Shown one piece after another: positions 15,295 to 61,077 of a DNA stretch of 64,000 nucleotides; within the stretch, counting starts at the first letter, position 1, and every line of letters starts with the position of its first letter. The notes below the pieces were generated by a model. That model had not been told where the DNA came from, did not search any database, and saw only the letters and a program-made list of their open reading frames with translations. The stretch is from a virus: the IMG/VR virus record IMGVR_UViG_3300035676_000002, positions 32,001 to 96,000 of that record, one strand, 5' to 3'. The position numbers and the translations under genes were made by a program.

Positions 15295-18200
15295 TTAAAA
15301 TAGTTTTTTGGGAGAAATATCTGAGAACTTAATTACTCCCTGCTTGATACCGAGGAAGTATGCCTTGACTCTCTGCGGTAATGCCGTTGGCGTAATTGTG
15401 GGCGTCGGGGTACGGGTTGGCGTCAGAGTTTTTGTTGCTGTTGGCTTAGGCGTTGGCGTCTTGGTTGCCGTTGGGTATGGAGTTGGCGTGTAGTTAACCG
15501 AACTCGATGGGCATGAATCAGTAGCAAATAATGTGCTATTACAGATAACCCAATAGTAGTAATTCTGTCCTAGTTTATTCGCATCGAGGTTAACCGTAAA
15601 TGAACGTTCTGTCCCTCCGAATGGACCATTATTGCCCATATACATAATCTGTCCATTTGACGAATACCACGGACCAATGAAGTGCGTCTTGCCCTGTCTG
15701 AATGGTTCATTGGCTCTCCAACGTCCACCCAGACCGTCTTGTGAATCAATATATACAAACTGAGGGGTGGAAAGGCATCGTGTTTCGATATTCTGCCCAC
15801 GCTTACCATCCCCAATGTATCGACCATAGTAGGTATTTTGCTGATATTCTTCCCCGATATTACCCCGTGGAGAACCAACGCCCATATAGAGGTACTGAAC
15901 GCCACTTTCATTGACGTTTTTGTTTGCTCCGGTATTAAAATACTTGTGTCCGCTAGAATGAATAGAATCTAAATCTTCCGCTCCGCTTGATTGCTTAATT
16001 GCACGTAGACCACCCTTGTATCCGCTACATCCTGATGCAAGGTTGCCCTGTAGTATTGTCAAGGTTTCAGCATCGTTACTAAGATGACAGGCTGGCACCC
16101 TAGGCCACAATGGCTCAAGAGTTCCATCTTCCGTGTATGGTCCGGTAATTCCTACTGCTTCGGCGCACCAGTAATATTCATCATTCGATACGTATAGATC
16201 GCCATTTACGTCGCCCATACATAGTCCCGGCGTCCATGTCGGAGTCGGAATAGGGGTATTTGTCGGGGTATCTGTTGGCGTAAATGTAGTTAATACTGGA
16301 ACGTGGGTTCCCGTATATGTTGGCTCTGGCGTTCTTGTGTAGGGAGGTGTCTTAGTCGGAGTTGTTGTATTGACCGGAGTAGTGGTTGGTAGATAGGTTG
16401 GGTTAAAAGCTAGTCTATTGTAATTATAATTATATCCGCTTGAAATTGGAATAGAATTACTTCTCAAGGCGCGAATAGATTCCCAATTTAAACTCTGTCG
16501 AACGTACTCTGTTGAACCGAATTCTGGGAAAACAAGCACGCCTTGCCCAGCTAACCCGTTTCCAGTATATACACCATGACGCAAGAAATACCCAGCATCA
16601 CCATCCCATTTTGAGAATCCTACCCAATGATAGATTTTATCTTTCTGATTAACTCTCCATGCTTCTTTATTGCTTGTATTAACCGGAGCTAGACGTAGGA
16701 GGTTTCCATAAGCTCCAGTTATCATTCCTGTTCCCCAATATCCTTCCGTTAGCGATTTACCACCAGCAAATTGACTTTCATTTGCCCATACAACGGACGG
16801 ATAGTTTTCCTCTGATTTAACAATAATATAAGATGGTTCAAACCCAAGATTGACTTCTTGTAGTTCTCCAGTTCCACGATAACACCCATATCCCATAACC
16901 CCCGGCACAACGGTAATCGGAGGATTTGTGCCCTCAACTGTCGCTGTTGGGGTAGAAGTCGGCGTCCCGCTTGTTGGTGTCGGGGTAGGAGTTTCGGTTG
17001 GCGGCGTTCCCGTTACAGTCGGTGTATAGGTAACGCAGACATACGGAACATCAATATACTCACCCATTGAGGAAATTTCAAACCATGTGGATTTAGGGGG
17101 TGCAGTCCAAATCTCTCCAATAGTTGCATCTCCATAGTCGGCTTGGTCAATTGCATTCTTTTGTGTGGACCCCACATATGAAGTTGCGGAAGCATTTTTA
17201 GAAATAAACCCATATTCAATATTGAGGGTGTCTCCGTCCTGTATCGCAAGTGGAGTAATAGGGATTGGCGCAGATGGTCCGAGGTATTTTAGTCCTTCAC
17301 CGCTTGTTCTCCATTCGTTTGTTGGATCGGTTTCATACCAATTATCAACAAGAGTCCCACGGACGGCTGTTGTTTCCCCTACTGTTACGTAGGCGTGTAC
17401 TTTAAAGAAGAAATCCGCATTGGTATTACTCTCTTGTCCACCCATAGCAAAGTTCAATGTCCCGCTAATTGTCTGCGCTGGGAGCCTAAATGAATGTGCC
17501 TTCCTTAATAGGCTAGAATAGTTCATGGCTGGGTTAGCTTCTGCCATAGACATAGACGACTCAGTGGCAGAGATAGCCCCAAATTGTAAATCTCCATATA
17601 GGGCTGTTGCGTTAATCGCATTCCACGAACCTTGCTGCGATGGGTAACTTGTAACATCCCATAAATTTTCGGTAGTATTATACAGCTTCGTTTGACCATT
17701 AGTAAAAATCTTATTTCCGCAATTCATATACAGATTTTTCATTTCTGTAAATGATAATTCTTTATTAAAAATCATAATGTCGTCATAGTATCCGTCCCAC
17801 GCATTTCCAGCGAAACTGGCGGGTCCAAAATTAAGTGGTTGGTTAACGGGGGTGCCCCTGCATTGCGTTGAGGTTCCCACTTGTGCTGATTCCTCAAATC
17901 CATCCACATAAAGTCGATGCTGGCTCACCCCTGATGGATTTGCCCAAGATGGGGCAGTAGAAACAGCAAAGAAGTGCCAGTTATTATCATCTACGTGCCG
18001 TCCACCAATAAGCGTGCTCGATACACTCGCGCAATCGTTTACGTTATTTCCTGCGTAGAGCGTAAGCGTGCCGTGACTATTCATTACAAGAGTAAGATAG
18101 TTAGCCGCGCCGGTATAGTTACTGAAGATTGTTTCTGGAACCGTAGCTGTATCATGCTTAAACCATCCAGTAATTGTTACCGGATAACGAGTGACAACCT

Positions 18201-21200
18201 CTGCTGGAATAGCAAATCCGGCATTGCCCTCTACGTGAATACCCATACCGCGAACGGCTGGCATGACATTATAAGTTGGGGCAAAACCTCCTTCTGAATA
18301 AACCCCATTTGTGCCGGGATTAATTTGGTTAACCGTTGGATCACCTAAGTTATCATCAAGCCTATAGATGCCAACCGCACTCGTATCGGAGGCGTATGTC
18401 TCGCACTGGTCATAAAAGACAGGCTCCCATGTAGGTGTTTCTGTTGCCGTGCCAGTTGGCGTCGGCGTTGGCGTGTTAGAGGGAGTTACGTAGGGGGTGT
18501 AGGTAGCACAATTCCCATCTCCCATACACGCCTGATTGACGAATTGCCCACCACCCTCACAAGAGCCATATCCACAATACCCAATAAATTGACAACACCA
18601 TCCGGTCGGTATGGGGCTTGGCGTTGGGGTAGGGGTAGCCGTAATGGGGGCAGGAGCCGTATCGGCAAATTCAATACCATATGAAATATTTGTTCCCCCT
18701 GCATCATCTGCATCCGTAATAGCTACAGTAAAATAATCGCCCTGTTGTAACGTAATTTGATTAACTAAATCAGTGCAAGATGTACTTCCCGCCGTAATAG
18801 TGCAAGACGGTCTAGTTCCACTACAGCTTGTCGGTGATGAATTCGCGCTACAAAATGTTACTGTTACTGGATTTGAAATGGAGCTAGCAAGCTTAACATA
18901 AAGATTACGAACTAGAGCAGCTTGATCGACACGATACTCAGTAATAAGTTTATTTGCGGTAGGCGCAATATGTTCATTCACATATCGGATTTGCCCCCAT
19001 TGCCCTAATGGGAATCTGCTAGCAAGGACGTGACCAGTTCCACTGAGGGTGATATTAAATATATTAAACTGTGTAAAAGGAGCATTAGCACTGCTTAAGT
19101 TTTGACCCCTCATTATTAATTCATCTCCAGCATCAAATGAACAATTGCTAGACGTACATGAATTTGCCTTATACTGAGCAAGTCCACCAGTAGCAAAATC
19201 ATTTGCTCCAAATTCAGTAGAATGTCCACCAGTGTTTGCGATACGCATATCTGTTGGGCTAAAAGTTCCATCTTCCATATGCCCAACGCGATATTCCATA
19301 GGATAGGTATGTTGCATAACCCGAAGCTGGTGAGCACGGGTAATACGCGCACTATGCGGTAAGATAAGTCCCGGTCCACCACTATAAGCAGCTAGGTCTA
19401 GATCGTATGGACTTTTAACGGAATACTTAACCGAATAAGCTAATTCTTTTAGACTCGCAGTTCCCCACCATAGGATATCATCCATTGCACTATCATCTTG
19501 TTTCGTAACCGTAAACATTGCATTGCAGCGCCATGTTGCTGTTGAATCCCAATTCCCACTACCGGATTTTGCTACCTTGATAATAGCAGTCTCTTCCCCA
19601 TTATAATCAGCGGTATGTACGGTATCTGAGCACGTCGTTGCACTTGTTCCGCTCATCGTACACGTAAGAGATGTATCAACCCAACCATCTGCAACTGTGT
19701 GTTTTTGTAAAGTAAACACAGCATCATTCGCAAGGACAATAGGGGCGCTACAGGTAATAAACATATTTTTAAGCCTAATTGGTTCTGGAGCTTGAAACAT
19801 GGTTTGGTCAAAAAGGCTCGTAACGGTTGTTTTCCCATTACCCATATACCATGTCGTAGTATTCGCAGCGACATTTGATCCAGAAAAGCTCAAACTCGCC
19901 CTTTCGGGCCATTCTGGGGTTGCTACAACTTTAGGCCAAGGACCGCTTCCTGCCGGTATAACCTCCCACCCGCCTCCTTTTATTGTTCCACCGATATCTC
20001 GATTATCTCCAAAAATATCAAAAGACTCCCCACTCTCAAGGCAACCACCTTGATCTACCGCCGAACAGTAGTTTTCCCCCTGCGTACCATTAATTGCACA
20101 CGTACTAACTCTATCATTATAATATTCTGGAACTGCTTCAGTATTTGTGTTTGCCCGATTAAATCCAACAACAGAATTTCCAACATTCGATCCAGTAATA
20201 AAAAAGAATCCATTATGTATACATAGGGCATGAGGCGCTATGTACCCGACATAGTTCGTAAAATCAAATATTGAATTAAAGCCTAGATTATCACGGTCGC
20301 TCGTAGCGCCGCCAGCAACTCCGGCTAGTTGCTCCCATTGCAAACCCCATCCACCACCAACATCTGTCGGCCCATATTCAAGAAAAAGCCGAACGTACCA
20401 ATTCCCGTTATATGATCCACGATAAGATCGAACAGTAACCTTATCACCTCTATCAAAAGTACAATTTTGCGTACACGTATTATCATATCCAGTTGGACTA
20501 GCATTATTGATCGTAATAGTAAGATCGGATGCTTTGTCTTGAGTAATATTATAAATTTGCATCGTGAGGGAATCGTTCGCGTTACCGGCCATTGGTGTAG
20601 GCGTAGTTGATCCACCATAAGAAGCAGCAGAAATACCAGTCCATCTACCTGAGAGTGGCATTATCCAATAGTATTTATTTTTATCTGTTCCACCAAATTG
20701 ATAATCTCGCGCAAGCGTTCCATAGCTATAATTACCTGCACTCGTCCCATCTACGGAATCAAAACTTCCGCCACCAGCATTGAACAAATGGTAGTGTGCC
20801 CCGCTGCCACCATTTTGAACTTGCTCAAATGTTGCCGTATATTGAAAAGAATTTGACGCTGCTGTAATTTTAATAGAAAATAAATCCCCAGCAGCAAAAT
20901 CAACCGAATTGGACGAGTCCGAACATTTAGTTAGGCCAGCCGATATGCTGCACGTTACCGCTGTATCGGCTTGATTTTTTCTTAAGGTAAATGTTGCTCC
21001 ATTAGCAATAGCAGAGGGGGATAGAATCCTCATATTCTGCAATCGTTTTGCATTAGGCATTACGCCACTATGCATTAATTCATTATTATTACATGGATTA
21101 TTGCCGTCATTATTAATACAATAATTGGGATTTCCAGCCGTTGTATTAAAATAGCCAGTAATCATCAAAAGTGGAATATCTGCTGGCGTAAATACTGGTT

Positions 21201-23556
21201 TTAGCGTTGGGGTAATTGTAGGCGTAGAGGTTTGTGCCGGTGTTGACGTAACGGTACTTGTTGGAGCAACCCCAGAAAAGCAAGCTGGGGTGCTATTTCT
21301 ATACGGATGTGCGGTTGGGAGTACGGTAGCGATACCCCACTTGTGGGCAAGATATCCCTGCACTGTCTCTCTGTTTGCTTGGGAGAGGCTTGATCCGTAA
21401 ACGATAATTTCTGCAACTTTAGCTTTCGCATCGGGAGTTCCAGCAGATGCACCAAGCTGGATATCTGTATATCCGGTTCGTGTTGTGCCGGGATTGACTG
21501 TGCTGACATTTGCTCCATTGAATGATAGCTTGCTTGATGACCCATTCCATTCGATAAAATTCTGGAACCACCCAGAAACAGCAGTTGTTCCAATAACAGA
21601 GCCATTATAAACAAAACATGATCCAGAGGATGCATTATCGCACTTAATTAGGGCATATCCATCACTACGACCTAGAAGGCTATTGTAGTTCTGCACCGTA
21701 TCGAGTTTTGCAACAATAAAAACGTCTGCCGGGAAAGCAATATTTGAAAAAACATCACTTTGCAATATGTCACTTCCGTCGAAAGTAATTGCCCCAAGTC
21801 CGTTTTGGACATTGCCATTCCATATTGGCTTGCTAGTATTACTTCCGGCGCTATTGAGGGCGTCATAATGAAGCGTTCCATAATCATGCCAATTGCTAAT
21901 ATATTGTCCCTCGCTAAATGGAACCGCATCAGCTTGATACCATAATTTCGGTGCAGCAACGTTGTACGCACATCCTGTTGGAGTTGACGTTGCTGTGCCG
22001 GTTGATGTTGCCGTACTTGTTGGAGTTGCCGTTCTTGTCGGTGTTCGCGTTAGGGTCGCAGTTGGAGTATTGGTAGACGCTGGAGTTGGTGTTTGAGTCG
22101 ATGAATTAAAACAAGACCAAACCTCAAATTGCATAAAATCTACATAATTTGTTCCAGCATTCCAATATGGAGTAGTTTGTATTCCTGTTCCGAATAGTCC
22201 GTCATTGACAATCCAGTGATCGGGCGTTGTTCCCCATAGATCAGTAGCCCCACCGAAGCACGTTTCTGTTCGTGAAGCTGGCATGGCGACAGTTTGATAG
22301 GCCGGTCCCTTATCATTCCCATATACTGTATTGCCGGTTCCAATGCCATTGTTTTGAAATAGATTAACAGAATCCTGCCATCCAGTTCCACCAGTTCCGG
22401 TTCCGTACCATGTTACGCATAGCTTAAATCCCTTAATCGTTGCCCCAAATGATACTAATGGGCCATATCGGCAAACTAAGTAGTCGCTTACGGAGTTACT
22501 TCCACCCGTCACACTAGCGTAGGTAGAATTATCGCTATGACCTTCGGCGGGATTTGTCCAGTTCAAGTCTGGTCCAGTATGATTTTCACATATCCACGGA
22601 GTTGCCGTAACATGAATTAGTTCCTCACCGGGATTATCGCATCCCGGCACAATTGTTGGCGTTGGCGTCGGCGTAGAGGTTGGCGTGCTGGTAAAAGTAG
22701 ACGTTGAAGTAGGAGTAAACGTATTTGTTTCTGTAGGCGTCGGCGTATTAGTAGGAGCTTCCGGTGCTGCATAACATACAACAAGTCTATTCCCGCATCC
22801 GACTCCTCCATTTGGTTCACTAGGAATTGTGCATTGTGCTAGCTTTGTTCGATGTTGGATAAAGTAAAGATTCGCTGGGTTATGAGCGGATAGTCCAAGG
22901 CGTAATTCAGTGCGACCGCTTGTGTTAATGCCAGCGAGATTATTAAATGGAATAATAACGTGAGTTCCCTCTGATGTATCGCCATAGGCATTATAGTTTT
23001 CGTATGATTGAAGAAGATACGAATTTAGATTATAACTAAAAGCAGTTCCGGCAACCTGATTGTTTGCTGGAGCATCTGCGCTTGTGCAGGTCGATCCCCA
23101 AGTGTAATAGTCTGCTGTGTAAGCCGCATCGGCATCGAAATTAGGTGGTCCACATGGAGTTGACGTGCTCCACCGATATCCGCACTCATTCCCACTCCAC
23201 ATAGAATCATACCACCGATAAACACCAGAATCTTGCAACCATAATGAGGCTGAAATAATTGATTGCCCCGGTGGAATATTACCAGATAATGCAGATGTAT
23301 CGAATGACAATAAGTACCCACGATACATTCCGCTATCTGTTAAATCTTCATTCCATTCAATTTCCATAAAACCGGGATTATGGAATCCACACGTTACCGA
23401 TGATGGATTTCCAATTGTTCCATAGTTCATCTGTGCTTGGTCAGCATCCGTTTCTCCCAAATAGAAAGTATCGCACGCTCCGTAAGCGGGACGAACAGCA
23501 GTAACCGCACTAATAATAAAGAATAAACCAGTAATAATATTTCGTAATTTAGGCAT
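15295..23556 (-). CDS. Giant (about 2750 aa) modular exported adhesin/fibre-like protein with LamG-like domains, Cys-paired beta repeats, a dockerin-like motif, YxGxG repeats and PT linkers
   Basis: Signal peptide [26 protein letters not shown]. LamG-like segments LWYQAD...AEIIVY...YLAHKWG and DDNNWHFFAV...LYVDG...YYDDIMIFNKELS. Also CMGDVNGD. ATG 23556 is TAATG-coupled. Confidence 0.75.
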   Translation of the reverse strand: MPKLRNIITGLFFIISAVTAVRPAYGACDTFYLGETDADQAQMNYGTIGNPSSVTCGFHNPGFMEIEWNEDLTDSGMYRGYLLSFDTSALSGNIPPGQSIISASLWLQDSGVYRWYDSMWSGNECGYRWSTSTPCGPPNFDADAAYTADYYTWGSTCTSADAPANNQVAGTAFSYNLNSYLLQSYENYNAYGDTSEGTHVIIPFNNLAGINTSGRTELRLGLSAHNPANLYFIQHRTKLAQCTIPSEPNGGVGCGNRLVVCYAAPEAPTNTPTPTETNTFTPTSTSTFTSTPTSTPTPTPTIVPGCDNPGEELIHVTATPWICENHTGPDLNWTNPAEGHSDNSTYASVTGGSNSVSDYLVCRYGPLVSFGATIKGFKLCVTWYGTGTGGTGWQDSVNLFQNNGIGTGNTVYGNDKGPAYQTVAMPASRTETCFGGATDLWGTTPDHWIVNDGLFGTGIQTTPYWNAGTNYVDFMQFEVWSCFNSSTQTPTPASTNTPTATLTRTPTRTATPTSTATSTGTATSTPTGCAYNVAAPKLWYQADAVPFSEGQYISNWHDYGTLHYDALNSAGSNTSKPIWNGNVQNGLGAITFDGSDILQSDVFSNIAFPADVFIVAKLDTVQNYNSLLGRSDGYALIKCDNASSGSCFVYNGSVIGTTAVSGWFQNFIEWNGSSSKLSFNGANVSTVNPGTTRTGYTDIQLGASAGTPDAKAKVAEIIVYGSSLSQANRETVQGYLAHKWGIATVLPTAHPYRNSTPACFSGVAPTSTVTSTPAQTSTPTITPTLKPVFTPADIPLLMITGYFNTTAGNPNYCINNDGNNPCNNNELMHSGVMPNAKRLQNMRILSPSAIANGATFTLRKNQADTAVTCSISAGLTKCSDSSNSVDFAAGDLFSIKITAASNSFQYTATFEQVQNGGSGAHYHLFNAGGGSFDSVDGTSAGNYSYGTLARDYQFGGTDKNKYYWIMPLSGRWTGISAASYGGSTTPTPMAGNANDSLTMQIYNITQDKASDLTITINNASPTGYDNTCTQNCTFDRGDKVTVRSYRGSYNGNWYVRLFLEYGPTDVGGGWGLQWEQLAGVAGGATSDRDNLGFNSIFDFTNYVGYIAPHALCIHNGFFFITGSNVGNSVVGFNRANTNTEAVPEYYNDRVSTCAINGTQGENYCSAVDQGGCLESGESFDIFGDNRDIGGTIKGGGWEVIPAGSGPWPKVVATPEWPERASLSFSGSNVAANTTTWYMGNGKTTVTSLFDQTMFQAPEPIRLKNMFITCSAPIVLANDAVFTLQKHTVADGWVDTSLTCTMSGTSATTCSDTVHTADYNGEETAIIKVAKSGSGNWDSTATWRCNAMFTVTKQDDSAMDDILWWGTASLKELAYSVKYSVKSPYDLDLAAYSGGPGLILPHSARITRAHQLRVMQHTYPMEYRVGHMEDGTFSPTDMRIANTGGHSTEFGANDFATGGLAQYKANSCTSSNCSFDAGDELIMRGQNLSSANAPFTQFNIFNITLSGTGHVLASRFPLGQWGQIRYVNEHIAPTANKLITEYRVDQAALVRNLYVKLASSISNPVTVTFCSANSSPTSCSGTRPSCTITAGSTSCTDLVNQITLQQGDYFTVAITDADDAGGTNISYGIEFADTAPAPITATPTPTPSPIPTGWCCQFIGYCGYGSCEGGGQFVNQACMGDGNCATYTPYVTPSNTPTPTPTGTATETPTWEPVFYDQCETYASDTSAVGIYRLDDNLGDPTVNQINPGTNGVYSEGGFAPTYNVMPAVRGMGIHVEGNAGFAIPAEVVTRYPVTITGWFKHDTATVPETIFSNYTGAANYLTLVMNSHGTLTLYAGNNVNDCASVSSTLIGGRHVDDNNWHFFAVSTAPSWANPSGVSQHRLYVDGFEESAQVGTSTQCRGTPVNQPLNFGPASFAGNAWDGYYDDIMIFNKELSFTEMKNLYMNCGNKIFTNGQTKLYNTTENLWDVTSYPSQQGSWNAINATALYGDLQFGAISATESSMSMAEANPAMNYSSLLRKAHSFRLPAQTISGTLNFAMGGQESNTNADFFFKVHAYVTVGETTAVRGTLVDNWYETDPTNEWRTSGEGLKYLGPSAPIPITPLAIQDGDTLNIEYGFISKNASATSYVGSTQKNAIDQADYGDATIGEIWTAPPKSTWFEISSMGEYIDVPYVCVTYTPTVTGTPPTETPTPTPTSGTPTSTPTATVEGTNPPITVVPGVMGYGCYRGTGELQEVNLGFEPSYIIVKSEENYPSVVWANESQFAGGKSLTEGYWGTGMITGAYGNLLRLAPVNTSNKEAWRVNQKDKIYHWVGFSKWDGDAGYFLRHGVYTGNGLAGQGVLVFPEFGSTEYVRQSLNWESIRALRSNSIPISSGYNYNYNRLAFNPTYLPTTTPVNTTTPTKTPPYTRTPEPTYTGTHVPVLTTFTPTDTPTNTPIPTPTWTPGLCMGDVNGDLYVSNDEYYWCAEAVGITGPYTEDGTLEPLWPRVPACHLSNDAETLTILQGNLASGCSGYKGGLRAIKQSSGAEDLDSIHSSGHKYFNTGANKNVNESGVQYLYMGVGSPRGNIGEEYQQNTYYGRYIGDGKRGQNIETRCLSTPQFVYIDSQDGLGGRWRANEPFRQGKTHFIGPWYSSNGQIMYMGNNGPFGGTERSFTVNLDANKLGQNYYYWVICNSTLFATDSCPSSSVNYTPTPYPTATKTPTPKPTATKTLTPTRTPTPTITPTALPQRVKAYFLGIKQGVIKFSDISPKKLF

Positions 23557-32300: not shown

Positions 32301-33461
32301 AGGATACGCAACTGGAGTTACGTTAGTAGAGGCTCTACTAATTCGGATGAAATAATTAATATCAGGCGTTGGGACAAATCGCAGTCTATCTGGTCCAGTA
32401 CCACTGCACGCCGCTCCAGTATATCCATCTGCACAATACATGGAAGTCAATGTTCCAGAGCACGTACCATCACTTGATTCAAGAACATCTATAATGGTAT
32501 CTCCACCGGAACCACAATCCTCTATCTGAAGCGCGCTATTCGCTACGGGAGTAGACGGGGCAAGCCAAGACCACCATAAGCTTTGCGGAGCGGGATAAAT
32601 AGTGCTACCGCATAAACGTACCGGTGGTTCACCGCTATAAATATCTGGTCCGGTCGATGCCGCATTATTTGTCGAAAGGCTATATGGTAAGGATGAAATA
32701 GTAATAGCCGATGAGCAAAAATCATTCACTGGCGTTGGCGTGCGTGTGCCAGTTGGCGTTGCCGTTGGGGTCATTGTCAAAGTTGGCGTAGGCGTATTTT
32801 CTTCCGAAGAAACAATATATGCTCCACCAAACGAAACCTGCCCACTACCATAATCTGCATAAAGCTCTGCCGTTACGGTCAAAACTTGACTTGCTGATCC
32901 AGCTTGATATATGATTGTCCATTCCTTTATTCCACTTGATGAACTAGGATAATCAACAACCCAATTCCACACAGCGGGTGCTGACCCATCGCTTAACTGA
33001 AACGTATACCGTATACGTGCATTATATCCACCCATAAATAAATGCAATGTTCTAACTGTAGTATCTGCATTAATATTTAATGCTACAGGAAGAGAATAGC
33101 CAACATTCCAATAGTTTCCGGTTGCGGTTGTTGTTGCTGAAGCGTTAGGAGTACCATCTGTCCATGTATAGTTATTAGCGGAAGTAGCAAATCGAACTCC
33201 CAAAGAGCCGCTTGTGGAAGCTGGCGATCCTATGCTATTAGGTCCACCGGATTTATAATCCCTTGCAGTGCTGGTATGACCCCAATGTGCCCAATCGTAT
33301 GTGCCAAGCGTTGTTAAGTTAACTGTTCCCGTAGAAGAAACCGGCGCGAAAACCTTTAGCGTTCCAACCGCATGGCTTTCCTTTACGGATAAAAAACTAA
33401 TTCCTAATATAAATATTACTATTAAGAAAAGTCTATTCAGAGAATAGCCAATCGTCAACAT
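29391..33461 (-). CDS. Modular exported protein (1356 aa) with two F5/8 type C (discoidin/CBM32-like) domains, two DW.H beta-sandwich domains and PT linkers
   Basis: Signal peptide ends VKESHA. KAFDG...IDLG...PKNWTF.GS.....WTTLDTQTNQ...YRYYRL occurs twice. Confidence 0.75.
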   Translation of the reverse strand: MLTIGYSLNRLFLIVIFILGISFLSVKESHAVGTLKVFAPVSSTGTVNLTTLGTYDWAHWGHTSTARDYKSGGPNSIGSPASTSGSLGVRFATSANNYTWTDGTPNASATTTATGNYWNVGYSLPVALNINADTTVRTLHLFMGGYNARIRYTFQLSDGSAPAVWNWVVDYPSSSSGIKEWTIIYQAGSASQVLTVTAELYADYGSGQVSFGGAYIVSSEENTPTPTLTMTPTATPTGTRTPTPVNDFCSSAITISSLPYSLSTNNAASTGPDIYSGEPPVRLCGSTIYPAPQSLWWSWLAPSTPVANSALQIEDCGSGGDTIIDVLESSDGTCSGTLTSMYCADGYTGAACSGTGPDRLRFVPTPDINYFIRISRASTNVTPVAYPIAVGYVTMTPTPTASNTPTPTSTVTETPTKTATPTPTATFTGQATPTPYPTKAPTAIGQLFYASGPTTSSYNLTTLGAVDWAHYCYTNGGTFNHKSPVVGAISDKFTNTGAAITLTRYASFWEQYTWTDGTPNGSVSNSGTGCILSDTSNSIKITVAADTTLRNVHIIGGAYNCLMRITATLSDASAPPITFDVVAGNSQSVYNDFNFWFQAASAGQTLTISREMVEDFGSGNVTMQAVYEPATENTPTATTTPNTPTNTPAGTATKTPTRTPTITPTYCSNSLVPHNMSSNTAPIPYVASSSGDYNSSYYPYKAFDGLQTGVTYWYSLNSADWMQIDLGDTPRGYVVENYKILSNAGGHAPKNWTFKGSNDNTNWTTLDTQTNQTGWATVPEWRTYTVNGAGAYRYYRLDVTADEGSVVYVKVIEMEICGAVGPTLTPTLTPPPLSRLGAPNSDQGIWHRALAWAGDGLGYVGDMFYWFNATVNPYYVQATPPATPTTAPTSTFTATATNTATFTPTPTNTHTPTATPTTDVCAVAGHADWIRVDQEKTVADNCWSTNIKKTAGDYSTSWSNASNAVSDDNSYASAGGGLGDPSYALVCHFPFTPPDDAIITGLTMKVRAYKYLTGVYMWAVLVKNDGNWAYLNCTDFNLNYENIPDTETERVFGAGYDNWGCVAGELTPSRVKNDAEFGPGIETKNGFGNGSYVYIDSMSSTLTWCEPPATPTPTFTATPTETPTPTPTVTSTFTPTPTPACAEQAPHNMSADDSPAPYVVTADGQYSSGYAKWKAFDGDESGAFARWMVATNGANYLSIDLGTDRFITEYGVVGSVSTDASPKNWTFRGSGNGTDWTTLDTQTNQTGWAEYERRNYTITGDVAYRYYRLYVTADNGNGYLSVAELYLCGSEAPTATPTPTATSTHTPTDTPTNTPTNTPTDTPTPTPTPTPTLTPLPTCHSDSDCPSDYICVTPTP

Positions 33462-36411
33462 TCACCGTACCTACTGTGCCAAGCGTATCTATCACAAAGC
33501 ACATAACTCCATCTGAGCTTGCCACTGCCGTTGATCCAGTATATTGCAACCATTTCGATACCGAACATGGGGTGTTCGTACACGAAGAGGCAATAACAGC
33601 ATCCGAACTAATGCCGATAGCAGGATTAGCCTTTAGAATAAGTCGCGGGGCTGACCCTCCATTCCATGATGCGCTTTCATAAACGGTTGACCATGCAGTA
33701 ATGCTATGGCCACTTCGGACGGTTGTGCAATGTTGACTCGATTCCATTCTGTATGTAGCGTCTTTAGGGGTCAGTTTTTCAGAGGGGCTTGCTCCGTTGA
33801 ATGTTACAGTATCCCTCTCGATAGTTCCAAGCGTTACCCATGATTTAAATGCTCCTACAACTTGGTCGTGATCCGTAGAGTGTAGCCAGTTATTGCTACG
33901 CCAATCAGTATTAGGCCAATTTCCTGTGGTGCCGGGGTATATTTCCACTGGCGAGGCGAGAAGGGTATTCCACATATCGCCTTGGAAAAGATATCCTTTA
34001 GGAATATACAAATCGCCATAAGTATGCATTCCATTCGACCCCGAACATAGTGGATGCAGATTCCCACACGATCCTATTTTTGTATTGATAATACGGACAT
34101 CCCTGTATCCGTCGCCATTAAAATGTATCCCATAATATCCATATTGGTGCAAAGGAGTAGAAGCGAGAGTAGAGTCTACAAGAGCAATTCCATTACCGAG
34201 GGAAATAAGTTGAGCATAATTATTGCTAGCCCCATTACCAATAGCTATTAAATTTGATAATGTTAAATCTCTTGTATTCCCTGTAGTGATGCCAGCTTGC
34301 CCATTGAGTAGCGATACTAGCCCATCAATCGTGCTCCTTGATCCATGATGGAAATAGTTAAGATCGAATCCATAAGTAGCATTAGATACAGAAGTGTTAT
34401 TATTGTAATTCCCAGAAGGAACAATTGCCCCATCGGAATATAATCCACCAGTGCTATCTGAAATATAAATTCCTACTCCATAATTATTTGCAACATAGTT
34501 CCCGGTAGCGACTATTGGAAATCTATTTAAATTCATTCCCGCACATCCATTGACCCTGCATCCAACGGAAAGATTATTAGTGAAAACACCACAATAGCCA
34601 GATTCGTATATACCATAATTGCTATTATCTATTACGTTATTATCAAAATTAACCATAGCGTTCGTACACGTAGATTGGGCATGATAAAATGGATAAGTAT
34701 TACTTACGGTAAAATCATGTATAGAACAATTTTGTAAATTCGTTAGCGATGATCCAGTGCTAGAGGCTGAATTGATCCCATAAGAGTAAGATGCTGCCTT
34801 ACCAAGCCAATAGAATTCTGTATTTGTTGCACTAAAAGTTGAATCATCCTGCACAAATACCGCAGAAAATAATGGAGCGCTTGATGTTCCACGAATTTTT
34901 ATATTACGTGTTAGATTACCCATTGCAGCTTGAAATGGAGAAGTTCCTAAATGTGAATAAAGAGGAAAGGTTGTTGTTGTGATCTGCGTAGCACTATCTA
35001 CGCTTGCGATAACTAATGTTTCTCTTTCGGAATACGATGCCGGATTTGTTCCAGTAACAACTACTGTATCACCGACCTTCCATCCCGTTGTGCTTGCTAC
35101 AGTAAATACATTACCGTTTGTTGCTGGAATACAATCTACCCTATTTTGCGTCCCGGCACTTCCATTTAAAACTAAATGTGTAGAATCAATGACATAACTA
35201 ATAGAATAATTCACTCCATTAATCTTAATTGTTCCAGTTAATCCGGTAAACGATTGTCCACCAAGTAACGTAACGGCTGTCCCAACTGTACTACAATATC
35301 CACCCTTATCGGCAGTTAGTTTTGTCCATGATGTTTTTGCGGCACCATAGGTCGTGACTCCACCCTGTCCAGTTCCTCCGGCATACCAAATATAATAAAG
35401 AGAGTCACCAGTAGTTCCCGGTACTATCTCATGTATTGCCGTAGAAGTATCTGGAACAGGAGTAGTAGCGGTTCCCATCGTAACCGTTCCACCATCGAAT
35501 ACGGCGAAATGCCCTCGATGCTTGAGGATATAGTTTGTAGATGCCGCAGTACCCCACGCAAGCGTTCCTCGACCAGTTCCCCTTCCGCCCCCCAAAGATA
35601 TTGAATGTGGGTTAACGGCGCTTGCGGCGGTTTGTCCAAAAGTAACCGAAGAATTTACATTATCCATCGTGACAGTAATATCATTTCCTGTCGCCTGTCC
35701 GGTATGTTCTCCATAAATATAGAGATTATCACCCTCGCCGGGAATAGCTTGCGTTGTTGTGCGAAGCATACGACACCAATCATAGCTTGCAGTCGCAGTT
35801 CTAAAAGCCCTCATGGTGTTGCTACTGGTAGTTTTTAATCCTATTTTATATGCCTTGCCAGCGGTAAGCGTTATTGGGCTACCGAATTTAAATTGCATCA
35901 AGCCCATAGAAGTCGTTAATGCTCGCTGTGGAACCTGATCGAGTCTAACAGTAACATTTGTAACTTCCGTTGCATCAGTATTATTATATAATTGAACGTA
36001 AAGTAAATCATTGCCAACCGATGCGCTTCTTCCATATGGACGAATAAGGATAGCATCAATAGTAATTGCCCCCGGCGTGAATGTTTGCGTATAATCATAC
36101 GACGTTCTAACCATGTCGTTATTTGCTTCCGTATCGGCATGAGAGGTAGTATCGACTAGCCTCCATGTCGCAGCACTGGTAAAATTACCAGTAGCAGCAG
36201 ATACGAGCCTTCCCCATGTGGCGCGTGTTGTTGGCGTTGCGGTAGGAGTATTTGTTGGTGTCGGCGTATCAGTAGGCGTAGCGGTAAAAGTAGGAGTATC
36301 CGTGGGAGTTTCTGTAGGAGTATCTGTCTCCGCTTGCGCGAAACACGTCCCAGCTAAAAGAAAGGTAAGAAAAACAAATCCTATAACTCTGTTTGAAATG
36401 TAATGGAACAT
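33433..36411 (-). CDS. Exported G8-like/parallel beta-helix (pectin-lyase fold) tailspike-like protein
   Basis: Signal peptide ends FLLAGTCFA, then a PT linker. GWKVGDTVVV...GNLTRNIKIRG is followed by Asn-ladder beta-helix repeats. Confidence 0.65.
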   Translation of the reverse strand: MFHYISNRVIGFVFLTFLLAGTCFAQAETDTPTETPTDTPTFTATPTDTPTPTNTPTATPTTRATWGRLVSAATGNFTSAATWRLVDTTSHADTEANNDMVRTSYDYTQTFTPGAITIDAILIRPYGRSASVGNDLLYVQLYNNTDATEVTNVTVRLDQVPQRALTTSMGLMQFKFGSPITLTAGKAYKIGLKTTSSNTMRAFRTATASYDWCRMLRTTTQAIPGEGDNLYIYGEHTGQATGNDITVTMDNVNSSVTFGQTAASAVNPHSISLGGGRGTGRGTLAWGTAASTNYILKHRGHFAVFDGGTVTMGTATTPVPDTSTAIHEIVPGTTGDSLYYIWYAGGTGQGGVTTYGAAKTSWTKLTADKGGYCSTVGTAVTLLGGQSFTGLTGTIKINGVNYSISYVIDSTHLVLNGSAGTQNRVDCIPATNGNVFTVASTTGWKVGDTVVVTGTNPASYSERETLVIASVDSATQITTTTFPLYSHLGTSPFQAAMGNLTRNIKIRGTSSAPLFSAVFVQDDSTFSATNTEFYWLGKAASYSYGINSASSTGSSLTNLQNCSIHDFTVSNTYPFYHAQSTCTNAMVNFDNNVIDNSNYGIYESGYCGVFTNNLSVGCRVNGCAGMNLNRFPIVATGNYVANNYGVGIYISDSTGGLYSDGAIVPSGNYNNNTSVSNATYGFDLNYFHHGSRSTIDGLVSLLNGQAGITTGNTRDLTLSNLIAIGNGASNNYAQLISLGNGIALVDSTLASTPLHQYGYYGIHFNGDGYRDVRIINTKIGSCGNLHPLCSGSNGMHTYGDLYIPKGYLFQGDMWNTLLASPVEIYPGTTGNWPNTDWRSNNWLHSTDHDQVVGAFKSWVTLGTIERDTVTFNGASPSEKLTPKDATYRMESSQHCTTVRSGHSITAWSTVYESASWNGGSAPRLILKANPAIGISSDAVIASSCTNTPCSVSKWLQYTGSTAVASSDGVMCFVIDTLGTVGTVNVDDWLFSE

Positions 36412-52609: not shown

Positions 52610-52612
52610 CGC

Positions 52613-53720: not shown

Positions 53721-54998
53721 TTAGCTTGAAGTCTTTAGTCGTGCAAACGGAGTCTTGAGAGTAGTGCAGTACCCAAGACGTTCCATCACACGTAACACGA
53801 TCCCTGCTTCCTTGAAAGCAGCGTGTGGTGACACATCAACGGTGAGTGACATACGATCACCGAGGATATGATAGCTAGGATCACCGTAAAGCAGGAAGGC
53901 GGTTGAGGCTTGTGACCCACCATCCTTCACCTTCGGCATAACCCGACTGCGAACATATGGACGACCAAACAATGAATTCGGAGGACCAGCCGCCATCTGA
54001 CCATAGAGGGGCTGTTCGTTCAAATCCTTCACTTGGCGAATCCCGTTGAGAACGCTGTTGCTTCCGATCCAAACTGCGGTTTCGGAAACCGCTTCGTCCA
54101 CGGCATCCATCGTTTCGATCAACTTGTTGTACCCGCCAGTTGCGCCGGTCGCCTGTAGGGTGCCAGCATAGGTGTTGGCAGCGCCGGTTACTTCGGTGAT
54201 ACCAGATAGCGCCATTAGGCCGGTAAAAGGCTCGGTGCCAGTACCCGGTGAAGTGAGCATCTGATAATCCTCTTCCTTCGCAATTGCAATACCGAACACG
54301 TCGATAACGAAGTCACGAATCGAAGGAATTGAATCCTCGTCAACCTCGATTGACAGAGTATCAATTGCAATCAACTTGTGAGCGGTCATCGTCGGCTTGG
54401 CAAACGTCACCTTGCTCTCGCTTGGCGCGTTGAGTTCCACACCGACCAACTCGGTATCCCAATAAACTGCCGGTAGGTCCGAATTGGTTGGGATTGTCCA
54501 ATCCTTGTGGTTCATAGGGATAACTCGGCAGAGGCGTCGAGCAATACCGTACTGTTCTACAATGCGGATAATCTCAGCACGATATTCGGTAGGCATAACA
54601 TACCCACCATCTGCGGCGGTTCCCTCTACCTGTGCGCGGAAGAAATCAGAGAAGCGGGGCTTACTATGATTGATAATCGCGGCGGTATCAAGAATCATTC
54701 GTGCGATATCATCACGAACCTTCTTGGATTTCTCTGTCTTATCAGGCACGATTGACTGATAAATCTTGTCGCCAACCGGGAGGGCGGCATCAAGATTGCG
54801 TAGACGTTCCTCAACGAGAGCAATGGTTTCCCCCTGCTTCTTAAGAGCGACTTGCGCTTCCTTGAATTCATCAACTGACGGAGCCGCGCCGATACCAGAC
54901 TCTAGGTCGGCAATGCGCTTCTCGATCTTTGCTGAGTTGTTCTTGTTCTCGTCCATGTTCTTTTCAACGAGTTCAATCAGCTTGTGTAATTGTTCCAT
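53721..54998 (-). CDS. HK97-family major capsid protein with an N-terminal coiled-coil delta domain
   Basis: ADGGYVMPTEY...II, KL...IS.E...DS, KD.N.QPL, LFGRP and YGD....GDR. Confidence 0.93.
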   Translation of the reverse strand: MEQLHKLIELVEKNMDENKNNSAKIEKRIADLESGIGAAPSVDEFKEAQVALKKQGETIALVEERLRNLDAALPVGDKIYQSIVPDKTEKSKKVRDDIARMILDTAAIINHSKPRFSDFFRAQVEGTAADGGYVMPTEYRAEIIRIVEQYGIARRLCRVIPMNHKDWTIPTNSDLPAVYWDTELVGVELNAPSESKVTFAKPTMTAHKLIAIDTLSIEVDEDSIPSIRDFVIDVFGIAIAKEEDYQMLTSPGTGTEPFTGLMALSGITEVTGAANTYAGTLQATGATGGYNKLIETMDAVDEAVSETAVWIGSNSVLNGIRQVKDLNEQPLYGQMAAGPPNSLFGRPYVRSRVMPKVKDGGSQASTAFLLYGDPSYHILGDRMSLTVDVSPHAAFKEAGIVLRVMERLGYCTTLKTPFARLKTSS

Positions 54999-55065
54999 TT
55001 TCTTTTCCTCTCTACCATCCCGTTGCGGCTAATGGTATGTGTTTTATTTTACTGCTAATCCCTCT

Positions 55066-56571: not shown

Positions 56572-58635
56572 TTACTTTTCCTCCGGTACGATTATGCAAT
56601 GACAGCCATGAACATCGGCAAATTTTAGTGCTCCGTCACCGGGATAAGAAAAGTGATTCTTAACGCGGCAATGAGAGGTTGTAGAAACAGCCATGTAGCT
56701 TGTGTTCCCATTCATAGAGTTACGCGCCCCAAGATTCATCGCCCAAATAATCTCTTCCGTTCCCAATGTATAGGCAACGTCATATAGCTTATTAAACGAC
56801 AACCGAATCTGTTGTTCCCGATTCTCCAAGGGTGCCTGTTCTATTTCTTTTCGCAAAATACTCAATACCTCTATAAACCGACCTTCGTGAGACTCTAATT
56901 GGGACAATAATTGAATATTTTGTGTCCCACGTATCTCTTTTTGCAGAAAAGACAGCACTGAGTCAATATCCTTTGTGATTTTTGTCCATGTTTCTCTATG
57001 GTTATACTTATCGCTCCCCAATTGCATTGCGGCAACTAGAATTGGACGAATACTGCGCCGCCACTTTTCTGATGTTGCGACAAGATCAAATACTTCGTCA
57101 GTTTCAGAATTGCGGAAACATTCGTTTCGAGTGTCGAAAAGTATTCTCTTAATCTTGCGCGTTGCTCGTTCAACCAGTGGTTTAACGTCTTTAATGAGGC
57201 TAGTCCAACGCTTTGCATCAGAGAAAAGAATAATGCTACGTCCCTCGCCATCCTTTGCATCTTCCTCGTCAGCCGATTCTTTTGCATCTTTTGATCCTTC
57301 CTTTTCTGGCGTTAAGTCGGTCTTTGCGGCAAGACCAGAGCCAGAACTAGGAGAAGTAATCTGAGGAAGCTCGCCTGTTTCTGCCGCATCCTCCATGAGT
57401 TCAATTGGAATATAATTATTAAGAATTAATCCAACATCTCCACCATCAACAGGATCAATGCCAAGGTCGAGTTTTGCAATTGCTTGATTAAGTGGGATAC
57501 CGCTTGATACCATACTCTTAAGAATATTCATTTTGGTATCCATATAATCCATCATTACTGGTAATCCATCATAATCAAAATAAATAGAAATCTTCTTTGT
57601 TCCTTTAAGGAATTTATTGATATATCCCTCATTTAATCCTTCTGCTAGCATAGATGCCCACGGGAATACTGCATTTTCATACTTCAGCATTCTCGCAACG
57701 GACAATTGATCCTTACTTAAACCGCTATGCTCATTGTCGTTGAGCAACTGCACCGGATACTGATAGATAGATGCAGCTTCTTGACGAGTAAATTTACGCG
57801 ACTCCAAATATTGCGCGGCAGAATGGGTAACTCCGAGCACTTTTAAATCGAAGTCTCCACCAATTACTGCAAGACCGCCTCCGCGCTGCGGACCCGCGTA
57901 AGCTTCATGCCATGCTTCATAAATAGTGTCCCTTGCCGCTTTATTGAGCGGTCCCGGTTTATAGGTTAATACGGCATCTGGCGTAGCATTATTACGGAAA
58001 AAGAACTTATCGAAAATAACACGCGCCGCATCTGCGTCAAGTTGGGCATCCATAGAAAGCCACGGTGGACACCCCATCCATTGATCGTAGTCATTAGGAA
58101 TCATCCAATGAATCATTTGATCCAATGGGACAATAACTGTTGCTCCACCGGGAATCTGCACTTGCCACGATTCGGGAGGAGAATTATATGTACGCCGAAT
58201 TGGCATAACCGAATCTGCCCCAAATAAAAGAAGTGATCGTGGGAATCCGGTTGAATCAATCTGATCTTTGTATACCCAAACATTTCCGCCCATGAGTAGG
58301 AACGTACCCCATTGTTCGATAAATCTTCGCTTTGATTGAATGGGATTGGGATTATCTATCTTGTATGAAAGAACGGGATGCTCTACTGGCACCCATGTCT
58401 TTGTAGAAAATTGCGTATCCTTATTACGCTTTGGCGTCCACAGCCCCATCGGAATATCGGCAAGGCTCGATACGATAGATCGGACTGTTGAATAAATCCA
58501 CACATTTCTAAATGCACGTTTTCCGTATGCTTGTGTCGAATTCTGCTTCTGGAAAATTCGCGCAATCTCGGTTAAATCCGTACTGCGTTCATATTCGGAT
58601 TCAGCAGGACGACCAAACTGATCTACAATCGACAT
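56572..58635 (-). CDS. HK97-family portal protein with a C-terminal MuF-like extension
   Basis: NPNP.QS...F, MGGN.W, FFRNNATPDAVL and YLESRKF....A; ends YPGD......HGCHCIIVP. Confidence 0.88.
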   Translation of the reverse strand: MSIVDQFGRPAESEYERSTDLTEIARIFQKQNSTQAYGKRAFRNVWIYSTVRSIVSSLADIPMGLWTPKRNKDTQFSTKTWVPVEHPVLSYKIDNPNPIQSKRRFIEQWGTFLLMGGNVWVYKDQIDSTGFPRSLLLFGADSVMPIRRTYNSPPESWQVQIPGGATVIVPLDQMIHWMIPNDYDQWMGCPPWLSMDAQLDADAARVIFDKFFFRNNATPDAVLTYKPGPLNKAARDTIYEAWHEAYAGPQRGGGLAVIGGDFDLKVLGVTHSAAQYLESRKFTRQEAASIYQYPVQLLNDNEHSGLSKDQLSVARMLKYENAVFPWASMLAEGLNEGYINKFLKGTKKISIYFDYDGLPVMMDYMDTKMNILKSMVSSGIPLNQAIAKLDLGIDPVDGGDVGLILNNYIPIELMEDAAETGELPQITSPSSGSGLAAKTDLTPEKEGSKDAKESADEEDAKDGEGRSIILFSDAKRWTSLIKDVKPLVERATRKIKRILFDTRNECFRNSETDEVFDLVATSEKWRRSIRPILVAAMQLGSDKYNHRETWTKITKDIDSVLSFLQKEIRGTQNIQLLSQLESHEGRFIEVLSILRKEIEQAPLENREQQIRLSFNKLYDVAYTLGTEEIIWAMNLGARNSMNGNTSYMAVSTTSHCRVKNHFSYPGDGALKFADVHGCHCIIVPEEK

Positions 58636-58644
58636 ATATTGTCC

Positions 58645-59289
58645 TTACTGAATGAGTTGAGCGTTATAGGCACATCCTGCACAATTTGTTACTTTAATCC
58701 ATGTTGAATCGCAGTATTCAGTGAATGTGCAACTCCCATCTGCTGTGAAGCTACATACTTCCTTATCGGGGAATGACCCGACCTGACACCGAACTGAAAA
58801 TGTTCCGGTTCCAGCAGTTAGGTCGAATACGACTTTATGCGTTCCTCTGCTATCTGCTGGATAGGAATTAGAATTACATGATGGTGTCTGCGTTGGGCAA
58901 ACCGGAGTATTGGGATACCACGAATATGCCATATTCGGACGCACTGTTACTGTAGCTGTTGGAGTAAGAGTAGCAGTGTTCACGGGAGTAGCCGTTCCCG
59001 TTGGGGTGGAGGTTCTGGTCGCCCCAGCGGTATATGTCGGCTTCGCTGTGCGCGTTGGTCGTTTCGTATGCGTCATTACTGGAGTAAATGTAGGCGTCCG
59101 AGTGGGCGTATATGTTCTCGTAGCCGTAGGGGTATTTGTCTTAGTTTGCGTTGCGGTAAACGATGGAGTTGCAGTTAGCGCGTGCGCCGATTTGCAACAA
59201 AATACGCAGCAGAACGTACACGCAGCAATTACCAATAGCATCATACTAAAATAAAGCGCAAATTGTGATTCTCGTTTTTCTGTTTTCAT
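58645..59289 (-). CDS. Signal-peptide PT-linker protein with a small Cys-rich beta domain
   Basis: Hydrophobic N-terminus ending SAHA, TP repeats, C-terminal [18 protein letters not shown]. Confidence 0.65.
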
Positions 59290-59313
59290 ATCATTCCCCT
59301 ATTGGTTGCGTGT

Positions 59314-61077
59314 TTAGTTCTGTAAAACTTCTACCCAACATGAACCTATGCCGGTCGTTACATCTGCGGTCTGTACCTCAAAGGCAAGTGTTCCGGTATT
59401 CACTACAGCTACTTGCGTTTCATCAATCAAAGCAGATGACATGACTTTTTGATCCTCAAATTCATGCCCATTTCCAGATACAATACCTAATCCAAACTTT
59501 GCACTTGCATCTGTAGTAGTAAAGTTACATTGCCAGTTGAGGACTTCTCCGCTAACAACACCGATGCCCATACTGTAAATCCCCTGTGCCATTCCCGGTC
59601 GAATAGCAATACTGTAGAACTTTGGAGTCTTAGCTACGCCAGCGGCAGGGGTAATTGTTGGAGTATTACTTGGCGTGCGTGTGATCGTTGGAGTACGTGT
59701 CACGGTAGGAGTATTTAGATCAGTGACTCCAACTTTTACTTGGATAGAGTCAACTGAAGCCTTCCATCCATCAAAACTTGAATCAGTACCCGTCCATTGA
59801 ACTGATACACCAGCCTTTAATGCCGTGCGGACATTAGCGGTCGTCCATGTTCCACCCCATAGCTGTGTTCCGTATGTGATGGTTTCATAGTCAGCATACG
59901 ACCATGCTGATACACTTGCAAGGTCGCTTCCGGTTGCTACGTCATTCTTAAACAAGCGAACATGATAGTCTGCAAAATTGTCATCTTCGGCTTTGTGCTT
60001 AATGCGTACTTGAATACTTCGCACCGTAGCATTTGAAGCAATCGAAGAAAGATCAAACGCGCACTTAAGATAGACGCTCTTTGTTCCGGCCCCTTTCTGA
60101 AAAGAGGCAATAGCTGGAACACCATCGGTTAATTTTGCGGCACTCACATTCCCCCACAAAACAGTACCAACGCTCTGATCGTTTACGCACCCACTTGCGT
60201 CTACCCATCCCGTATCAACATTAGGCGTTGCTGTATTCGTAGCCGTGAACGTTGGAGTATTCGTCGGCGTATGGGTATTCGTCGGCGTATGAGTATTTGT
60301 AGGTGTATGCGTTGGGGTTTCGGTCGGCGTTTCGGTCGGCGTTTCGGTCGGCGTTTCGGTCGGCGTTGCCGTTGCTGTGCTCGTTGGCGTATTTGTTGGC
60401 GTATTTGTTGGGGCTGGAGTTGGGGTATCTAGCGTTGCTCCAACCCAAGCGGCCCCGATCACTGAAAATCCGCTACCATGATCTGTTCCAACTGTCCATG
60501 ATACATTAAGTGTCTGTGATCCAGAATTTGCGGCAAAAGTAATTGCTACATCCCGAGATGCAAACCCGTTAAGTCCACCCGCAGAGCAGTCACCACCCGT
60601 TGCATCAATATTAGTATAAACAACCTGATCTGCACTATTATCACTAAGCGAAAGGGTTAATTGCCCAGACGCAGAACACGTCCCAATACTGAGATGCACT
60701 GTGCGTGGTGATGCAGAAGCAGCTACCGTTAATGTAAAGGTGCGACCAGCAGCATTTTTTACAGAAGAAGAACTATTGACTACTGAAGTATGCGGAGCAT
60801 TACCATCCGACCACGAATACATTGTCGCAAAAGCGCCAATTCCAGTTCCAGCATCTCCACCCAAATCGCTAATAATAGCAGCGTCGGGGTCTTTGCGATT
60901 CATCCCATCCCATACCCAATGACGCCAATCTGTCGTGCCAACTGCCGTAAGGTCTATAGTAGCTGGGGCAGCAGTATCAGATGATACAGCGATATATCCT
61001 GCCGAAGCAGGAGAAACACTTCCCGCAAGGATAGTTGCAAGAAAGATGAACGGGACTAGAAGAAGGGACTTTTTCAT
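59314..61077 (-). CDS. Modular exported PT-linker protein sharing domains with 29391..33461 and 15295..23556
   Basis: MKKSLLLVPFIFLATILAGSVSPASA; TIDLTAVGTTDWRHW domain; W.N.S.A...D domain. AGGAG RBS before ATG 61077. Confidence 0.7.
   Translation of the reverse strand: MKKSLLLVPFIFLATILAGSVSPASAGYIAVSSDTAAPATIDLTAVGTTDWRHWVWDGMNRKDPDAAIISDLGGDAGTGIGAFATMYSWSDGNAPHTSVVNSSSSVKNAAGRTFTLTVAASASPRTVHLSIGTCSASGQLTLSLSDNSADQVVYTNIDATGGDCSAGGLNGFASRDVAITFAANSGSQTLNVSWTVGTDHGSGFSVIGAAWVGATLDTPTPAPTNTPTNTPTSTATATPTETPTETPTETPTETPTHTPTNTHTPTNTHTPTNTPTFTATNTATPNVDTGWVDASGCVNDQSVGTVLWGNVSAAKLTDGVPAIASFQKGAGTKSVYLKCAFDLSSIASNATVRSIQVRIKHKAEDDNFADYHVRLFKNDVATGSDLASVSAWSYADYETITYGTQLWGGTWTTANVRTALKAGVSVQWTGTDSSFDGWKASVDSIQVKVGVTDLNTPTVTRTPTITRTPSNTPTITPAAGVAKTPKFYSIAIRPGMAQGIYSMGIGVVSGEVLNWQCNFTTTDASAKFGLGIVSGNGHEFEDQKVMSSALIDETQVAVVNTGTLAFEVQTADVTTGIGSCWVEVLQN
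60317..60364 (+). repeat. Perfect 12-bp tandem repeat x4 (GTTTCGGTCGGC), encoding PTET on the minus strand
   Basis: Read directly from the sequence. Confidence 0.9.

Follow-up and report, generated by a model that had tools for sequence, protein, structure and literature searches.

Recurring lectin-type modules on Pro/Thr linkers in predicted exported proteins of a tailed-phage late region: probable slow mosaicism

We analyzed a 64,000-nucleotide stretch of viral DNA (the window), which corresponds to bases 32001-96000 of an IMG/VR record of 112,442 bases (IMGVR_UViG_3300035676_000002, hereafter G000) with a CheckV completeness of 72%. The source is an uncultured, siphovirus-like tailed phage whose late region makes up the window, and ~20 kb of this late region is given to ~11 proteins composed of modules strung on Pro/Thr linkers. 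The reading that we favor, and consider probable, is that these proteins are Sec-exported, Cys-rich chains of lectin-type modules shaped by slow evolutionary mosaicism, with no programmed or fast diversity generator. The recurrence of modules would result from whole modules having been duplicated, gained, lost, and re-assorted long ago, part of this within the phage lineage and part of it probably via a wider pool of bacterial surface proteins linked by Pro/Thr (PT) segments. Junctions would be kept at linkers mainly by selection for foldable products, since only junctions in disordered spacers leave both neighboring domains foldable, while the ACN-CCN repeat DNA of the linkers, which always aligns in frame, may help.

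A preliminary description of this DNA had proposed that a kit of modules is shuffled between proteins at PT linkers. We compared the modules after masking, whereby each 10-residue window with at least six Pro/Thr was removed and the remaining segments were compared all vs. all. In these comparisons, and in that with the related phage G001 described below, homologous blocks span the inter-linker segments nearly end to end. Almost all modules are bounded by linkers, as had been proposed, and the module coordinates given earlier are correct within a few tens of bases (Table 1). Module A is indeed present in three copies. P0002 contains two of them, with 36% identity (E 1e-28), and the one in P0003 is 27-28% identical to those (E 3e-13 and 3e-12). 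Module B is likewise present in three proteins, the copies in P0001 and P0002 sharing 32% identity (E 8e-10). The B copy in P0003, which shows only 22% identity in direct alignment, was confirmed via outside proteins to which the other copies are similar as well (E 1e-8 to 2e-11) and via G001. The two discoidin domains of P0002 are both recognized by Pfam as F5_F8_type_C and are 50% identical to each other (E 4e-42). The E repeats of the giant protein P0001, which were found by a small hidden Markov model and missed by blastp self-comparison, are borne out as three clear copies sitting within two ~400-aa super-units. For the Cys-rich mini-modules, the proposed relationship stands only in part: P0001 aa 1659-1695 and the second knot of P0004 (aa 253-290) are homologous, with 38% identity over 37 aa, but the first P0004 knot (aa 115-170) has nothing beyond the GCC motif in common with them. 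The C-terminal knot of P0005 matches the C-termini of P0009 and P0010 (47%), two proteins from another dataset.

The resulting architectures are elaborate. P0001 starts with a signal peptide, an N-domain, a linker, B, a second linker, a domain at aa 536-770, and a third linker. From aa 799, these are followed by the two E super-units (799-1639), a linker, the Cys-rich mini-module Cq, a linker, the LamG region, and another linker, the C-terminal end being formed by M2216, a linker, M2454, a linker, and a conserved 25-aa tail. P0002 is composed of a signal peptide, A, a Cys-rich domain, A, discoidin, a small domain, B, discoidin, and a Cys tail, all separated by PT linkers. P0003, which is encoded between the large terminase (TerL) and portal genes, is simpler: signal peptide, A, linker, B, linker, and a 109-aa C-domain. 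All the module-carrying linker genes are on the minus strand.

Comparison of domain order in a related phage shows that these architectures are not fixed. G001 (IMGVR_UViG_3300005077_000007), a record of 108,596 bases with direct terminal repeats, is syntenic with the window, with identities of 64% for the capsid protein, 61-65% for TerL, 37% for the portal, and 30-33% for proteins of 1393 and 538 aa. The G001 protein adjacent to TerL (P0417) contains, in a single chain, a signal peptide, a linker, B, a long linker, and a domain (Cy) that is 40% identical to the C-terminus of the window 214-aa protein and not homologous to the C-domain of P0003. The positional orthologue of P0001 in G001 is 1497 aa long and displays two E super-units, M2216, M2454, and the conserved tail, vs. 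which P0001 has three additional N-terminal modules and a Cq+LamG block between two linkers. The G001 LamG homologue is found in a different protein of 1815 aa, together with PKD and GDSL/SGNH esterase domains. There is no module A in G001, and P0002, P0004, and P0005 have no counterparts in it. Between the two phages, three module adjacencies are kept and no fewer than four are lost. For the eight true breakpoints, the median distance to a linker is 14.5 aa vs. 71.5 for random non-linker positions (P ~0.002), bearing in mind that masking can trim block ends. Further combinations are seen in P0009 and P0010 (A, linker, E region, linker, Cys knot). The same modules are thus found in other orders and in other proteins, with junctions at Pro/Thr linkers, which agrees with the idea of a re-assorted kit. 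E units or B also occur in other PT-linked proteins at four metagenome loci, with no phage hallmark genes in their flanks. At 79 loci of distant TerL relatives (≤38%), no kit modules were found in the TerL flanks, covering ≤10 kb on each side.

Two observations concern the ends and positions of these proteins. The 1815-aa protein of G001 (L010:13992-19439) has a signal peptide and occupies the position of the window 992-aa protein. The last 20-25 residues of P0001 (aa 2736-2760, window 15298-15372) are more conserved between the two phages than any other part of it, with 60% identity, and could be an anchoring or attachment peptide.

Structural predictions point to a common type of module. Neither A nor B matches any Pfam family even at E 10 or any Protein Data Bank entry by sequence profile, and a search of the ESM Atlas gave no name. 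However, A was modeled by AlphaFold2 (from a 35-row alignment) as a β jelly roll, with a mean predicted local distance difference test score (pLDDT) of 93.6. The structure most similar to it is the C-terminal domain of TSP4 from phage CBA120 (VIA-align Z 11.0, rmsd 3.0 over 143 residues), a tailspike-like match that constitutes a fiber-like feature, followed by the carbohydrate-binding module (CBM) families CBM4, CBM16, CBM22, and CBM61 at Z ~8, a value that is commonplace in such structural searches. The AlphaFold2 model of B copy 1 (pLDDT 82) is a CBM4-like jelly roll, with TM-scores of 0.44/0.54 to the CBM4 structure 1gu3. On this fold evidence, the kit is predicted to consist of lectin-type/CBM-type β sandwiches (A, B, discoidin, and LamG), which, judging from fold and family, would bind glycans. 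A is a candidate new CBM-like family, without a Pfam model. In the window proteins scanned, Pfam gave no catalytic-domain match, the β-helix match of the 992-aa protein being below threshold.

The A family is large and mostly found in bacterial proteins. A profile of A matches 2,689 representative clusters at E ≤1e-3, with up to 10 copies per protein, and tandem arrays are found in metagenome-assembled genomes labeled Acidobacteriota, Vicinamibacterales, Verrucomicrobia, a betaproteobacterium, and Bacillota. Thousands of these homologues have no linkers. Among the top matches, a PT linker adjoins 87 of 415 A copies, and none of the top 149 module-A proteins has any other kit module. A gave no match in GenBank phages, the same search with TerL yielding 24-30% identity at best. 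Scans of viral contigs with TerL, A copy 1, and P0009 found nothing, nor did a scan of metagenome contigs with P0002. As for B, it occurs twice at the N-terminus of MshQ-like/DUF6701 bacterial proteins and also in a protein whose match to a type IX secretion system sorting domain is weak and below threshold.

Nothing points toward recent shuffling. Between paralogous modules, identity is 26-51% at the protein level and 40-52% at the DNA level, only 35-54% of the identical residues use the same codon, and synonymous sites are saturated. No 30-codon stretch of paralogous modules exceeds 69% DNA identity. Modules shared by G000 and G001 are in the same range, all of these comparisons with the paralogues included lying within 25-51%. 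By exact look-up, five contigs encode the same P0002 and a sixth encodes a version with one residue changed. The 2753-aa form of P0001 is shared without change by four contigs, and the 992-aa, 214-aa, and 627-aa proteins by five to six, although some of these contigs may be re-assemblies of the same samples. This invariance applies to the proteins just listed and excludes P0003, P0004, and P0005, which comprise the most repetitive linkers and gave no exact match at any start codon tried. The suggestion that shuffling is recent or ongoing is therefore not supported, given the divergence of the paralogues and the invariance of the looked-up proteins on four to six contigs.

The linker DNA itself shows what its peptides require. 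The 35 linkers total 3,993 nt and encode 176 TPT tripeptides. The word ACGCCAAC is found 40 times and the word ACTCCAAC 17 times, all in frame 0, where independent codon choice predicts 28 and 18, respectively. The reported reuse of DNA words in the same frame is thus real, yet set against codon usage it is peptide-driven and does not extend beyond the peptide requirement. Thr codon usage is mixed, each of the four codons accounting for 20-34%, which lowers DNA identity between linkers. As a null for shared words, we made 40 redraws in which the peptide was kept and the codons were drawn from linker usage. The longest exact word between linkers is 23 nt, within the same gene, vs. 18.8 ± 1.8 in the null; between linkers of different genes, it is at most 15 nt. 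The mean longest shared word is 10.3 vs. 10.0, and seven linker pairs have a word of ≥15 nt in common vs. 9 ± 2.8 expected. This shows that any two linkers have 10-15 nt of microhomology, no more than the peptide forces. Linkers also contain perfect tandem units with 100% matches (12 nt × 4.2 at 60317-60367 and 6 nt × 4.3 at 29470-29495), which indicate recent local slippage. The second of these arrays, in P0002, is invariant on six contigs.

Every PT-linker protein of both phages displays a basic stretch, a hydrophobic core, and an AxA-type site, i.e., a Sec signal peptide. These were judged by hydropathy and by eye in the 11 linker proteins of the window and their G001 homologues, the core having a 12-residue hydropathy of at least 2.5, except in one protein with 1.7 and the same pattern. 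Such a signal peptide is lacking in TerL, portal, capsid, tape measure, and the 1393-aa and 538-aa proteins. A further trait of the linker proteins is their high Cys content (58 residues in P0001). Because of their signal peptides and many Cys, they are likely to be exported and to fold outside the cytoplasm, unlike classical fibers, which are assembled in the cytoplasm. The combinatorial receptor-binding diversity that had been attributed to the kit is therefore doubtful and finds no support: the re-assorted modules are there, but all of the proteins that carry them bear Sec signals and Cys, and none of the core virion proteins has such signals.

The phage might also modify these linkers. Approximately 5.4 kb past the end of the window, G000 encodes a 754-aa protein with a PMT_2 (GT-C) match (E 1.5e-10), nine transmembrane-like segments, and a C-terminal PA14 domain, which is absent from G001. 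In Cellulomonas, a GT-39 PMT adds abundant O-linked mannose to the Pro-Thr linkers of secreted enzymes (PMC12757957). By analogy, the PMT_2+PA14 protein may be a candidate O-glycosyltransferase for the Thr-rich linkers, although the match does not fix its glycosyltransferase family.

How, then, did the modules come to recur? That the similarities are an artifact of Pro/Thr composition bias has virtually nothing left to recommend it. Most database matches to whole P0003 are indeed due to its linker alone, but the similarities survive linker masking, which rules this explanation out, and the modules fold confidently and have their many linker-free homologues. More serious is the proposal that PT-linker DNA is an active in-frame recombination substrate, perhaps aided by SbcCD, that elevates re-assortment and yields combinatorial binding diversity without reverse transcriptase or invertase. 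Indeed, all the rearrangement junctions seen are at or near linkers, in-frame words of 10-23 nt are common to linkers, and some linkers contain perfect tandem units. The fused linker of G001 (~114-130 aa) is approximately the sum of the two split linkers of the window (25 + ~93 aa), as a linker-to-linker deletion or insertion would yield. The absence of other generators also held up: no serine recombinase/invertase was found in the 112-kb record, and PF00078 (reverse transcriptase) gave no match in this record (72% complete), while control genomes do match. We nevertheless regard this proposal as improbable. The shared words are no longer than in the synonymous-codon null, the mixed use of Thr codons reduces linker DNA identity, no recent event is visible among paralogues and G000/G001 modules that are 25-51% identical, and the looked-up proteins are invariant on four to six contigs. 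No near-identical direct repeat pairs were found, inverted repeats not having been searched. The SbcC- and SbcD-like genes are ordinary large-phage genes, and nothing connecting them to the linkers was found. Moreover, selection for foldability alone predicts junctions at linkers, and it explains the linker bias as well as a microhomology mechanism does. A bolder version, in which the linkers are a self-registering in-frame substrate that swaps lectin modules between the phage lineage and host surface-protein genes at elevated rates, is to our mind more improbable still. If true, it would amount to a diversification, free of reverse transcriptase and invertase, of exported and possibly O-glycosylated fiber-like proteins, which, outside the cytoplasm, might become part of virions or of the cell surface.

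Another possibility, unlikely but less so than an active substrate, is that most modules were taken up, each independently, from host genes for secreted proteins with the same PT linkers. For A, the identity of each phage copy to outside copies (35-43%) equals or exceeds that to its paralogues in the phage (27-36%). B shares 39% identity with an MshQ-like protein vs. 32% with its own paralogue, and E units and B occur in PT-linked metagenome proteins whose flanks lack phage structural genes. Yet the two P0002 copies of A pair together in a FastTree phylogeny, with the P0003 copy apart, although the placements of the phage copies have no support. In addition, the two discoidins share 50% identity, the E super-units are tandemly duplicated in both phages, and outside copies are all <50% identical, none being close enough to mark a donor. 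Slow mosaicism of exported chains, which accommodates a contribution from both sources, is in our opinion the best account, but several points weigh against it. The comparison of architectures rests on one relative at a useful distance, G001. The perfect tandem units show that linker DNA does change locally, and the additive length of the G001 linker is what exchange between linkers would leave behind. Furthermore, a position downstream of the tape measure gene is fiber/tailspike-like, and so too is the SGNH esterase in G001.

Each of the two phenomena combined here is well known. Mosaicism of phage proteins, especially receptor-binding proteins, has been documented (Smug et al. 2023, PMC10684548). 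As in those proteins, the same domains are found in different proteins and orders of related phages, encoded downstream of the tape measure gene. The differences are the long Pro/Thr linkers, the Sec signal peptides, the many Cys, and the lack of visible recent exchange. As cited in PMC8209791, Warren et al. 1986 described "region shuffling" in CenA/Cex of Cellulomonas fimi, where module order differs across the PT box. The likeness extends to signal peptides, CBM-type modules, Pro-Thr linkers, the order of modules in paralogues, and a PMT-family gene, but here the proteins are phage-encoded, the window yielded no glycoside hydrolase domain, and O-glycosylation is putative. Diversity-generating retroelements and invertase-based fiber switching resemble what had been proposed here in outcome, i.e., diversity of binding proteins, but neither a reverse transcriptase nor a serine recombinase was found. 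In the host-specificity genes of Streptococcus thermophilus phages, collagen-like Gly-X-Y repeats flank variable regions and are proposed recombination sites. There too, in-frame low-complexity repeats bracket exchangeable modules, but those repeats are near-identical in DNA between phages, whereas the identity between linkers here is within the coding requirement. Finding both phage mosaicism and PT-box shuffling in a phage late region is unusual, with Sec-signal-bearing, Cys-rich, multi-lectin proteins standing where tail fibers normally do, which raises the question of what use exported fiber-like proteins are to a tailed phage. The analysis also yields two uncharacterised CBM-like domain families, A and B. 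For the shuffling claim, it provides a clean two-genome example with linker junctions and no new mechanism.

The linker genes are part of a minus-strand HK97-type late region that runs from the large terminase through to the endolysin (Table 1). A prohead protease gene lies between the portal and major capsid genes. After the tape measure gene come those for the 1393-aa and 538-aa proteins and then a run of Pro/Thr-rich proteins ending at 14767, so that this run of linker genes belongs to the tail module and follows the genes for the tape measure and distal tail proteins. The left part of the window contains SbcD-like, SbcC-like, Thy1, primase zinc ribbon, and prim-pol genes.

Table 1. Coordinates of modules, linker proteins, and other genes (positions in the window, except where the G000 record is named).
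Feature	Position	Strand	Remark
A copy 1, P0002 aa 31-219	32805-33371	-	
A copy 2, P0002 aa 444-628	31578-32132	-	
A copy 3, P0003 aa 35-222	60439-61002	-	
B copy 1, P0001 aa 314-492	22102-22638	-	
B copy 2, P0002 aa 922-1102	30156-30698	-	
B copy 3, P0003 aa 295-462	59719-60222	-	
Discoidin (F5/8 type C) copy 1, P0002	31005..31457	-	Pfam F5_F8_type_C
Discoidin copy 2, P0002	29595..30032	-	Pfam F5_F8_type_C
E region of P0001, aa 799-1639	18661..21183	-	
Clear E copies, P0001 aa 840-934, 1260-1360, 1547-1638	20776-21060, 19498-19800, 18664-18939	-	
Cq, Cys-rich mini-module of P0001, aa 1661-1693	18499..18597	-	Homology to P0004
LamG region of P0001, aa 1720-2181	17035..18420	-	Pfam Laminin_G_3 at aa 1784-1945
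P0001, giant, 2760 aa	15295..23577	-	Likely start 23556 (2753-aa form)
P0005, 185 aa	23556..24113	-	Signal peptide, 105-aa PT linker, C-terminal Cys knot (23559-23669)
P0004, 486 aa	26068..27528	-	Linker share ~60%; Cys mini-modules at 27022-27186 and 26659-26772
P0002, 1356 aa	29391..33461	-	
992-aa protein	33433..36411	-	Signal peptide and PT linker; weak β-helix match below Pfam cut-off
214-aa protein	58645..59289	-	Hydrophobic N-terminus, PT linkers, C-terminal domain Cy
P0003	59314..61104	-	Between TerL and portal
Large terminase (TerL)	61158-62642	-	
Portal	56572-58635	-	
Major capsid protein	53721-54998	-	
Tape measure	42178-47283	-	
GH108/PG_binding_3 endolysin	13686-14249	-	
SbcD-like (Metallophos) and SbcC-like (SMC/AAA) genes	9616..13349	+	
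PMT_2 (GT-C) protein with C-terminal PA14, 754 aa	G000:101428-103692		~5.4 kb past the window end

Two minor observations concern other genes. The primase zinc ribbon (5442-6059) and the DnaG catalytic core/Toprim (63224-64000) are encoded by separate genes, ~57 kb apart. The TerL of G001 (P0298, L008:9968-12535), which is 844-855 aa long, has an insert of ~350 aa between the positions corresponding to residues 236 and 238 of the window TerL. It has a precomputed Pfam hit to PF03161, which we take to be a LAGLIDADG homing-endonuclease family, and this suggests that the insert is an intein or a homing-endonuclease insertion.

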